IMG/VR virus record: IMGVR_UViG_3300024346_010589
Span: 18,064-82,063 of that record
Length of the DNA: 64,000 nucleotides
DNA from: a virus
Direction: 5' to 3' (one strand)
Shown: one piece after another, positions 54,601-57,600 of the stretch
How the letters are laid out: every line of letters starts with the position of its first letter
Position numbering within the stretch: position 1 is the stretch's first letter
The notes under the pieces: generated by a model
Database searches by the model: none
Told to the model about the DNA's origin: nothing
The model's input: the letters and a program-made list of their open reading frames with translations, nothing else
Position numbers and translations under genes: made by a program

Positions 54601-57600
54601 GATTTTTGCGACTTTTCTTCTGTAGATTTTAATAGCGCTTCTCCTGATGACTTAGCCTTCTTTAGTTCGCCCAACCTAGTTTGTTCACCTTTGGAAAGCT
54701 TGCCTGTTTTTTCTGTTATGGAATTTATTTGTGCCTCTGTTCTTTCCATTTTTTCATTTAATAAATCCTTGATTCCTTCAAAGTCTTTAGAAATATCAAA
54801 GCTGGCTATCTCAGCTAATGTCTCTTTACCTTCCTTACCAAACTTGCTGGCTATTTTTGAAAACTCACTAAAGCTATCGGTGAAAGCTTTAGACATTTCA
54901 GACAATTCATTTTTAGCATTATTTAAAATTGCGTCTGGAATTTGTGGCGCGGCAAAGTTCGGCACCATGCCCTTGCTCGCTCCATGTTTCTTTGGGTCTA
55001 TACCCATAGTCTTGGCGCGCCTTATTCCCTGCTGTACTCCGGCCGGCTCATCTCTAGTATTAGTTACTGCGAGCCCCATTGGGTTTTGAGCACTTTTTAA
55101 TTGAGAACTTTTCTCTACCCTGATTCTGGCCTGAGGAACTCCTGCTGCTCGCTCTCTTGATATCGCCGCACTTAATGGATCTGCAAAATTAGGAACAAGG
55201 CCGCCGTGCATAGCTCCATCTAAAAATGGATCACGGGGAGCTTTATGCTTTCCTCTTGCAGTAGCAACACCTTCATTATGAGGAATCATGAAACCTTTCA
55301 AGATTCGATTCATTTTCATTTCAGATTTAGCTATTTCAATTAGGTTTTCTTTGTTCTTTCTTGATGATGAATGATTAAATACTTTTTCGTAATCTTCTGG
55401 ATTTCCACCAAATGATACAGTGGATCTATTAAACCTAAACCTTGAGGATAGGTTACTTATATTTGTTTTTAAATAATCAAAAATATTATGAGCTAAATCT
55501 TTATCTTCTTCTGTTACTTGTTCTTTTACTCTTCTTTTTTGTGATTTCTGAACTCGTTCTACTTTTGAAAAATTAGGAATTAATCCATTATTAAATAATT
55601 GAATTACTTCTCTTTCTCCTTGGTGGATTTGTCTTGTTCCGTCTTTGTTATAACCAACGTCAGCGAGAGGCACTATCTGCTTCATGCTTTGGCCGTACCT
55701 TTTGCCGGATGAATCATCATTATTAACGCCAGATATATTGAGGTACATGCCCCCGTTTTTCTGCGCCCAGTTCTTTACTGCTCCTGATGCGATTTCTTTC
55801 TTAAACTTCTCGACACTTGGATAGTTGCCGCTCTTCGGATCAGATCCCTTGTTGAGTATTTTCAGTAGTTTGGCTTTATTAAATATGTTTTTTGAAGGAA
55901 CTGTTTTTTTGAAAACTTGCCCCGGTGACATGTCATTGCTTGTTAGATCAATACTATTAGCAAATTTATCTGCAACTTGCGGAGACGTGCTGTAAGAGTT
56001 CGCGCCCGAAGCTTTCTTTTCCCCAGAAGTCCCCTGCTTGTTTCTGTATCCAGCTAAATCACCACTAACATGTCTCTTCACGAAGTCCTGAACTATCTCA
56101 ACTACATCATTAGGTGTTCTAGCAGAAGCAAAGCTGGGCAAGTTTTCTGAGATGTCTGGAGTATCTAGGGTTTTGTTCTTTTGGCCTCTATACAGGTGCA
56201 CATTTGCAAAATTTGGAACTAGGCCCTCTGCGTTACCACTGCCTCGTCCCGCATGCTGTCCAGAAAATTTATACAATTGGCCCATCAAGTTTTTATTACC
56301 TAAAGCTTTAATTGCTGCAATATTTTCAGGAGCATCGTCTATTAAATTATATCGCCCTCCATTCTTCTTCTGCATGTTTTGAAGGATCGTGGCCTTTTTT
56401 TGCGCGGAAGTCTGGCCGTTCTGGATGCTCCCAGTTGTTATGATTCTACCAGAATTTATGCCCCAAGACTTTAATTTCTTACTAATAAAAGATTTTGATT
56501 CTCCGGCTCTTGCGGTGAGGATATCAATGGTTCTACCCTTTAATGATTTAGCTAGATCAGTTGGTTCCGCAAGTGCGGCCGACTCTGCATTAAACAAATC
56601 AGCGGAAGTTACGCTACTAGGATAGGTAGCTAAAGTCTCGTCAAAGTCATAAAAAGTTTTTGCAAAATTAGGCACAAAACCTCTTGCCGCACTCAAATCT
56701 TTATTTCCGTAATACTCTCCCTCTCCCGCCTGTTTTTTGTATTTCTTGAGGATTTTTGTTTTGTCGATTGATTTTAAATTCTCGTAACCGGGAAGTTGAA
56801 GTTTCTCTCTTGTTTGGCAGACCGCCTTGATTGCGTTTTTTATATCCTCATCGCTTGGCTGAGTTTCTGGGGTTTTTCCTATTGGGATATCTAGATGCCT
56901 GCTTATTTGAGCCGAGGTGATGTTGGCGGGAGATGGTGGCTTGTTGAACTTTATTCCCTTGTTCGATGGGTCGGCCAATGTGTCTTGTATTTTTTGGCTG
57001 CGAGTTCTTGGGTCTGCGAAGTTTGGTATTAATCCGCCCGAAACATTTCCTGATTTAAGACCTTCTAATTCTTTAACTTTCCTTCCTGTTTTTGTTCTTT
57101 TGTCTATTGCTCCTAGATCTACATCATCTGTAACATAATTAAAAGATATTATTTTTTTATCTAACTGTTTTTTTAATTCTAGTTTTTTCTTTTCTTCCTC
57201 TGTGGGTTTTTTCTTGTTTTTAGGTTCGACTAATAATTCATCATATGTATAACCATGATTAGCCTTTACGGATTCATTTATTGCTTTTCTTGCTTTTACT
57301 GATTTTAATCCTCCTTTTTTCATCAGATTTCCAAGGGTAATTTCTTTTTCTCTTTCTGAGTCCCTACCAGTATTCACTATATCGGGAAAGTCATCGCCTG
57401 GTAGATGCACTTGCCTGTTTGAAAGTAGGCCTTCTAGCAATCCTTCGCTGTGCACCTCCCTTATAATCTTATCCCTCATTAATCTTACTCCATGCCCTGG
57501 TCCCGCATGGGCATCGCCATAAGTTTCATAATTGTCCAAACCTATAGCATCCGCAGTCTTTTCGGGAACCCGAAGAAGCCTTTCCCTCTTTCTAGAAAAG

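Follow-up and report, generated by a model that had tools for sequence, protein, structure and literature searches.

A predicted cholera-toxin-like ADP-ribosyltransferase cassette inside the tape measure protein of an uncultured marine phage

ADP-ribosyltransferases (ARTs) of the R-[ST]-E clade are defined by a triad carried on strands β1, β2 and β5 (PMC9825190); in cholera toxin (CT) the residues are R7, S61, E110 and E112, and the ExE motif marks arginine-specific ARTs (PMC8120803). TreTu is an antibacterial ART of this clade with EF-Tu as its target (PMC9825190), and T4 Alt is injected and ADP-ribosylates RNA polymerase (alpha), EF-Tu and MazF (PMC8120803). Fusions of MuF with VIP2 ARTs are predicted virion components (PMC7302621). 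The phage ARTs named by a review are T4 Alt, ModA and ModB and the anti-CRISPR protein AcrIF11 only (PMC8120803), and we found no report in the literature of an ART inside a tape measure protein (TMP). Here we analyse 64,000 nucleotides of viral DNA (the window: positions 18,064 to 82,063 of IMG/VR record IMGVR_UViG_3300024346_010589, an 82-kb linear contig with a completeness estimate of 61%), in which a segment of a giant predicted TMP had been described from the letters alone as an ADP-ribosyltransferase domain. On the strength of structure modelling we consider it probable that this segment, hereafter the ART cassette, is an active mono-ADP-ribosyltransferase from the cholera/pertussis-toxin-like R-S-E clade, delivered with the TMP and likely to be arginine-specific.

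Position, motifs and conservation of the cassette

The features on which the argument depends are as follows, with residues of the cassette numbered so that position 1 is A1508 of the TMP.

48627-60728, minus strand: TMP gene, 4033 aa, host of the cassette array; one 12,102-nt open reading frame (ORF), the largest of the window
56208-56225, minus strand: GLVPNF, boundary motif upstream of the ART cassette, aa 1502-1507
55587-56207, minus strand: ART cassette, aa 1508-1714, 207 aa
56187-56189, minus strand: R7 (R1514) of LYRGQ, on predicted strand 1 (model residues 2-9); present in 59 of the 59 cassettes that cover the position
56070-56072, minus strand: H46 (H1553), at the end of helix 32-47; present in 60 of 60 cassettes
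55983-55997, minus strand: S71-Y-S73-T74-S75 (aa 1578-1582), STS-like, on predicted strand 70-73 followed by helix 76-83
55623-55895, minus strand: mostly helical insertion that separates the core strands from the ExE strand; aa 1612-1702, model residues about 105-195
55608-55616, minus strand: E198-R-E200 (aa 1705-1707), the ExE motif, where the last strand (200-205) starts; each Glu present in 60 of 60 cassettes
55569-55586, minus strand: GLIPNF, boundary motif downstream of the ART cassette, aa 1715-1720, starting 8 residues past E200 in the main subfamily

Between NVHLYRGQ (start 56204) and GEREVIQL (end 55596), both read on the minus strand, the three motifs that the preliminary description had placed in R-S-E order, LYRGQ, SYSTS and EREVIQL, do occur in that order within aa 1508-1714. 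Its second claim, that the domain fills exactly one segment between PNF-type motifs, is also correct, as GLVPNF and GLIPNF directly flank 55587-56207. Comparison of 60 distinct cassettes then confirmed the triad itself, with R, S/T and ExE constant across the family and on the expected strands of the model: R7, H46, S71, [ST]73, E198 and E200 vary little or not at all among cassettes with as little as about 33% identity, including in subfamilies that match the N-terminal half of the profile alone. S67, G68, [ST]73 and F82 are present in all 60 cassettes, G8 in 59, S71 in 58, T74 in 50 and S75 in 37, and the family-wide Ser/Thr motif is S-x-[ST] and not a strict S-T-S. The middle residue of ExE takes 10 identities among the same cassettes while both glutamates stay constant. 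Among close relatives of the cassette the ratio of nonsynonymous to synonymous substitution rates (dN/dS) is 0.11-0.27, which denotes purifying selection.

Two features go beyond the preliminary description. One is H46, which is as invariant as the triad; we take His44 of CT and of heat-labile enterotoxin (LT), and His35 of pertussis S1, to lie near the active site, and H46 might have such a role. The other is the helical insertion of about 90 residues, which has no counterpart in the matching solved ARTs. In the 32-sequence alignment it contains the invariant residues K106, N107, K111, K113, G121, Y129, P130, G142, G153, N157 and G160, and this conserved element is likely to serve in target recognition or regulation.

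The family is broader than a single-sequence search indicated. Divergent subfamilies (P0104, P0106, P0113, P0119, P0131, P0105, P0102/103, P0101 and P0057/60) retain R, H, S, [ST] and ExE; they carry P-S-G-F-V-S-[RK]-T in place of S-G-A-x-S-[FYW]-[ST]-T, and their C-terminal halves differ. In the fragment P0013, aa 1-198 join the C-terminal portion of an ART cassette to another N-terminal half (T-P/K-P-S-D-V-V ... S-G-A-V-S-W-T-T), which is followed by a PNF motif, an arrangement that suggests duplication or recombination inside the ART module.

Predicted fold and activity

The 207-aa cassette without the flanking GLIPNF was modelled with AlphaFold2, which returned a mean predicted local distance difference test score (pLDDT) of 36 from the cassette sequence alone, and a pLDDT of 88 with a predicted template modelling score (pTM) of 0.86 when supplied with a 32-homologue alignment. 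The model consists, in order, of strand 2-9, helix 32-47, strand 70-73, helix 76-83, strand 97-104, helices 111-118, 130-141 and 143-150, strand 154-157, helix 181-184 and strand 200-205, the last beginning at E200. A VIA-align search against 48,161 representative chains yielded 53 chains at Z>=2, and among the best 50 of these 53 all but two or three belong to the ART superfamily. The top match was TreX (Z 6.5, root-mean-square deviation (rmsd) 2.5 Å over 95 residues), followed by EcPltA (Z 5.5), pertussis S1 (5.3), TccC3 (5.0), Scabin (4.8) and LT (4.6); lower matches from the superfamily were AcrIF11, Arr, Tpt1 (3.7, 2.4), CARDS, diphtheria-type toxins, pierisin (3.4), PARPs, ParT, MbcT, RES, DarT (2.4), Vis, ART2.2 and an iota-like toxin. 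A second structure comparison gave TreTu at Z 6.2, LT-IIb at 5.5 and CT A1 at 4.9-5.1 (17-20% identity, with model residues 1..207 on chain residues 1..120), and in the CT and LT chains residue 1-4 was aligned to model residue 1-4. Foldseek found nothing in the PDB at E<=1e-3, its list of weak matches being dominated by ARTs, and no match in BFVD at E<=1e-3. The solved ARTs match just 95-114 of the 207 model residues though the span is 1..207, and the low Z scores are explained by the small core together with about 90 unmatched residues.

According to the model, the cassette has the ART fold, a split β-sheet NAD+-binding core, and R7, S71/S73 and E198/E200 fall on elements matching β1, β2 and β5 of the R-S-E (cholera-toxin-like, ARTC) clade. 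Where the preliminary description had proposed structure prediction as its check, and a fold other than an ART as the outcome against it, the AlphaFold2 model, Foldseek and VIA-align all pointed to an ART. The case for this predicted fold is built on the uniformity of the hit list and on the positions of the motifs.

The ART-fold matches also include chain B of 9k3a (Z 3.4, residues 1420-1594), which is an ejection protein from the pre-ejectosome of cyanopodophage A4. An ART is not mentioned in the publication of the 9k3a structure, and the match is a weak, model-based hint at another injected phage protein with an ART-like domain.

Several observations weigh against an active ART. The Z scores are at most 6.5, and according to the tool's own warning a Z below 8 alone may reflect a common arrangement; the placement of R, S and E relative to an NAD+ pocket is judged from strand-helix positions and aligned ranges. 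The spacing from STS to ExE is about 125 aa, compared with 49 aa (S61 to E110) in CT, and there are few TMP copies per virion. At the level of sequence, no ART family was retrieved at E<=10 from Pfam, NCBIfam or PHROGs with the cassette, the 32 homologues or 4 divergent cassettes; phmmer and profile searches of PDB sequences gave no match to the cassette; PF01375 (Enterotoxin_a) matched nowhere across the 82-kb record; and hhalign of the family profile against T4 ModA and ModB, a comparison that covered these two and not Alt, returned probabilities of 0.5% and 0.4%, the sole ModA local alignment covering the S-x-S/helix region and not being significant. Likewise no ART family was found by tblastn of the cassette against 50,697 phage records. 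The cassette thus represents a sequence-orphan ART family outside curated libraries. Finally, the model ends 7 residues past E200 without a further strand. In canonical ARTs a sixth strand follows the ExE strand, and the modelled core may therefore lack a strand, or the flanking motif may supply it. We take CT to carry G-G-I-P-Y-S shortly beyond its ExE strand, and by this analogy the sixth β-strand of the fold may be provided by the boundary motif G-L-I-P-N-F itself. In one divergent subfamily (P0104, P0106, P0113, P0119 and P0131) a segment S-P-[YF]-[YF]-G lies between the ExE strand and the boundary motif.

The absence of ART homology at sequence level and Z scores below 8 would both be expected if an unrelated domain had acquired the motif order by chance and the fold prediction were misleading. 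This we judge very improbable. Nearly all of the 50 chains listed out of the 48,161 searched come from one superfamily, which makes chance implausible, and the three motifs are invariant and sit on three expected secondary-structure elements. The ordered triple [LVI][YF]R[GADW] ... aromatic-x-S[TS][ST] ... ExE[VIL]xx[LIV], a pattern formulated post hoc, has a single occurrence in the 4033 aa and was seen in 0.05% of 2000 shuffles that preserved composition.

The lack of a sixth strand in the model and the large insertion could also mean that the ART fold is present without transferase activity, the cassette acting as an NAD+ glycohydrolase, as a binder of NAD(+) or ADP-ribose, or as a structural plug of the TMP in which ancestral residues persist; some ART-fold proteins are indeed NADases or inactive. 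This is quite improbable given that R, H, S, [ST], E and E are kept strictly invariant to about 33% identity while the middle ExE residue is free, and that dN/dS is low. Moreover, a pure NADase would do little at a few molecules per infection. An active transferase remains our preferred reading of the cassette.

Carrier, cassette array and distribution

The 4033-aa carrier is assigned as a phage TMP on sequence similarity and gene position: a Pfam search matched PF10145 (PhageMin_Tail) at aa 134-316 (E 6e-23), annotated Bacillus phage TMPs share 28-32% identity with its N-terminus, and gpJ/gpI-like tail-tip genes lie downstream of its gene. Relatives are named TP901-family TMP by JGI. The protein carries 8 G-[LFM]-[VI]-P-N-F-[AS] motifs at aa 643-1926 (window 54951-58817), which divide its N-terminal half into 7 cassettes, and the ART cassette is the sixth of these segments. 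All 12 full-length representatives have a PNF-type motif on both sides of the ART cassette, as do most of the fetched loci; two lineages (L006 and L013/L025) have a degenerate motif downstream.

Two other explanations of the motif were considered and found not to be supported. Its codons differ at synonymous sites, which speaks against a DNA-level recombination repeat and indicates that selection acts at the peptide level. All 8 copies lie in the TMP and none in any other ORF of the record, which is at odds with a general maturation-protease site of the virion. From the varied codons and the confinement to the TMP, we conclude that the PNF motif is maintained in the TMP by selection on the peptide and is neither a DNA repeat nor a general protease site.

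The array belongs to a large polymorphic system. Used as query, the last cassette of the array (72 residues) retrieved at least 262 giant TMPs of 2218-7058 aa; when about 130 of them were cut at their motifs, 845 cassettes were obtained, which fell into 67 families and 105 singletons, and the order of cassettes was unique to almost every TMP (P0002-P0133). Precomputed Pfam annotation places SNase (PF00565) or PF07022 domains in some related TMPs. The pattern is that of polymorphic effector systems. The query cassette itself (aa 1850-1921, window 54966-55181) is the final one before the coiled-coil TMP core; it is present in 104 of the about 130 TMPs, invariably last, and reads D-P-L-x-x-A-I-x-R-E-x-A-A-G-[VI]-P ... 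N-P-M-G-L-A-V-T-N ... G-I-D-P-K-x-H-G. It may be an anchor or processing element of the array.

Within this system the ART cassette is exchanged between phages as a unit. A HMMER scan of 1.84 billion representative proteins revealed about 12 true relatives (E 8e-117 to 3e-4), and every ART-cassette homologue found there is part of a giant TMP-like protein, whole or fragmentary; a word-indexed search added 8 further close relatives with 89-95% identity. Loci with the cassette numbered 16 in IMG/VR and 14 in metagenomes, including TARA and other JGI (Ga-numbered) contigs, and 0 among 185,579 reference genomes. The 42 TMPs that contain the family display 37 architectures with at least 21 different upstream neighbours, and among 109 TMPs picked independently of the ART, 23 carry the cassette. 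The module is thus confined to giant TMPs of uncultured, mostly marine phages and is shuffled as a unit among at least 67 other cassette families.

The cassettes on either side of the ART were also inspected. Directly upstream lies a HAD-like cassette (aa 1357-1503, window 56220-56660) that opens with F-Y-D-F-D-E-T-L, also contains L-I-D-D and matches PHROG 415, polynucleotide kinase (PNK), at E 5e-6. Exactly this cassette is missing from P0017 and from L001 (~2990-3001; ART cassette 99% identical); in L001 one motif is lost with it, a clean single-cassette indel at PNF motifs. The cassette directly downstream (family F05; aa 1722-1844, window 55197-55565) has no family match; it is the commonest downstream neighbour of the ART, found in 13 of the 42 TMPs, including P0011, whose ART is 36% identical, and could be a functional partner.

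The PNK-like neighbour bears on the nature of the substrate. An ART-fold enzyme could modify nucleic acid by ADP-ribosylating DNA or RNA, as do pierisin, Scabin, DarT and TreThr, by RNAylation, as does T4 ModB, or by an RNA-end reaction together with the neighbouring HAD/PNK-like phosphatase cassette. Scabin, pierisin, Tpt1 and DarT all appear in the structure list, and tRNA can be the target of Rhs ARTs related to the best matches (PMC13617354). We nevertheless regard a nucleic-acid substrate as unlikely, because the guanine-specific enzymes of the CT group listed in PMC8120803 have QxE (Q158/E160 in Scabin) whereas the ART family keeps a strict ExE, the arginine-specific signature. The catalytic residues of Tpt1 and DarT differ as well, and the HAD neighbour is inconstant, being one of at least 21 upstream neighbours and missing from L001 and P0017.

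Proposed delivery and comparison with known systems

The TMP fills the tail lumen and is expelled ahead of the DNA. Given this location, the ART would be expected to reach the cytoplasm before the genome, with a few copies of the enzyme arriving as soon as infection starts. Three or more TMP copies, each with a folded 23-kDa domain, would hardly fit the lumen of the tail tube; it is therefore probable that the virion carries the cassette unfolded or extended and that folding would follow ejection. It would then act either within the TMP or once cleaved at the PNF motifs, using host NAD+ to ADP-ribosylate a host macromolecule. The ExE motif makes protein arginine the likeliest acceptor, and the modification would disable a host function or defence before phage gene expression. 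We infer injection, and action on transcription, translation or defence, from the location in the TMP and by comparison with T4 Alt, AcrIF11 and the Tre toxins. Genes for macro (PF01661) and ADP-ribosylglycohydrolase (PF03747) domains were absent from the record, which says little since the record is only 61% complete.

An active ART might instead act inside the cell that makes the phage or modify phage proteins, as in self-modification of the TMP or virion while these are assembled. Late in infection, when the TMP is synthesised, the cytoplasm contains NAD+, and ejection of the cassette region into the next host is itself inferred, the folded domain being no obvious fit for the tail lumen. 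We hold such a role to be improbable: a hypervariable, recombining array with nuclease-like and phosphatase-like modules has the pattern of polymorphic effectors and not of assembly factors, and a function in assembly would leave the presence of the cassette in just about one fifth of related TMPs unexplained.

Beyond delivery of a single enzyme, we tentatively put forward a wider scheme, possible though doubtful at present, in which the TMP is a polymorphic, MARTX-like 'polyprotein syringe'. The G-x-x-P-N-F motifs would delimit, and perhaps release or cap, interchangeable enzyme modules that are threaded unfolded and refold in the host before the DNA arrives; the ART would be a pre-emptive effector acting on defence or on a translation or transcription factor, and the boundary motif would perhaps be its sixth strand.

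If the ART is delivered as proposed, the TMP, which precedes the genome into the host envelope or cytoplasm, would be a new delivery vehicle. The module is common (23 of 109 sampled TMPs, with at least 262 related giant TMPs in ocean metagenomes) and exchanged as a unit, which points to a widespread, unexplored layer of conflict between marine phages and their hosts in which effectors are delivered within the tail. It offers a testable system for the route of TMP segments to the cytoplasm and for the bacterial targets that a pre-emptive ART requires, as well as a compact new ART scaffold whose conserved insertion probably sets target choice.

Compared with the described systems, the predicted fold resembles CT A1, LT A, pertussis S1 and PltA (Z 4.1-5.5, rmsd 2.7-3.5 over 97-114 residues, 12-20% identity). 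As in CT and the CT/pertussis toxin group, an arginine in L-Y-R stands at domain position 7, a second strand with Ser/Thr is followed by a helix, and ExE takes the place of E110/E112 of CT (PMC8120803). Unlike that group, the cassette has no detectable sequence homology and carries the conserved insertion before the ExE strand; it also has no A2/B-subunit apparatus or disulphide-loop activation, is internal to a phage structural protein, and presumably has bacterial targets.

The best structural matches are TreX, TreTu and Tre1, toxins of Rhs proteins and the type VI secretion system (Z 6.2-6.5 for TreX and TreTu, rmsd 2.5-2.7), which share with the cassette a small R-[ST]-E ART core, phage-tail-like delivery into the bacterial cytoplasm and exchange of modules between carriers (PMC9825190). 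The Tre domains are C-terminal tips that are freed by Rhs autoproteolysis and paired with immunity genes, whereas the cassette is internal and flanked by PNF motifs, with no immunity gene identified. The triad of TreTu is unorthodox; the cassette family has the canonical R / S-x-[ST] / ExE.

Among phage enzymes, T4 Alt is a separate head-packaged protein and not one of the tail lumen, and ModA and ModB are made after infection. As a phage R-S-E ART that resides in the virion and is delivered with the DNA before phage gene expression, Alt is the functional model we propose for the cassette (PMC8120803). The MuF-VIP2 fusions of actinobacteriophages are alike in joining an ART to a virion protein and in varying among related phages (PMC7302621); there the carrier is the minor capsid protein MuF, the toxin is C-terminal and the VIP2 sequence is recognisable, whereas here the carrier is a TMP, the ART is internal in an array and its sequence is an orphan. 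Effectors of the Sle1 type from contractile injection systems come close in architecture, a TMP-like scaffold with an exchangeable functional module being ejected from a tail-like tube; they have a single functional domain with membrane- or ribosome-associated effects, and the paper on them describes neither an ART nor a motif-delimited array of several cassettes (PMC13277306). Set beside these systems, the novelty lies in a sequence-orphan branch of CT-like ARTs and in its predicted delivery context, the TMP.

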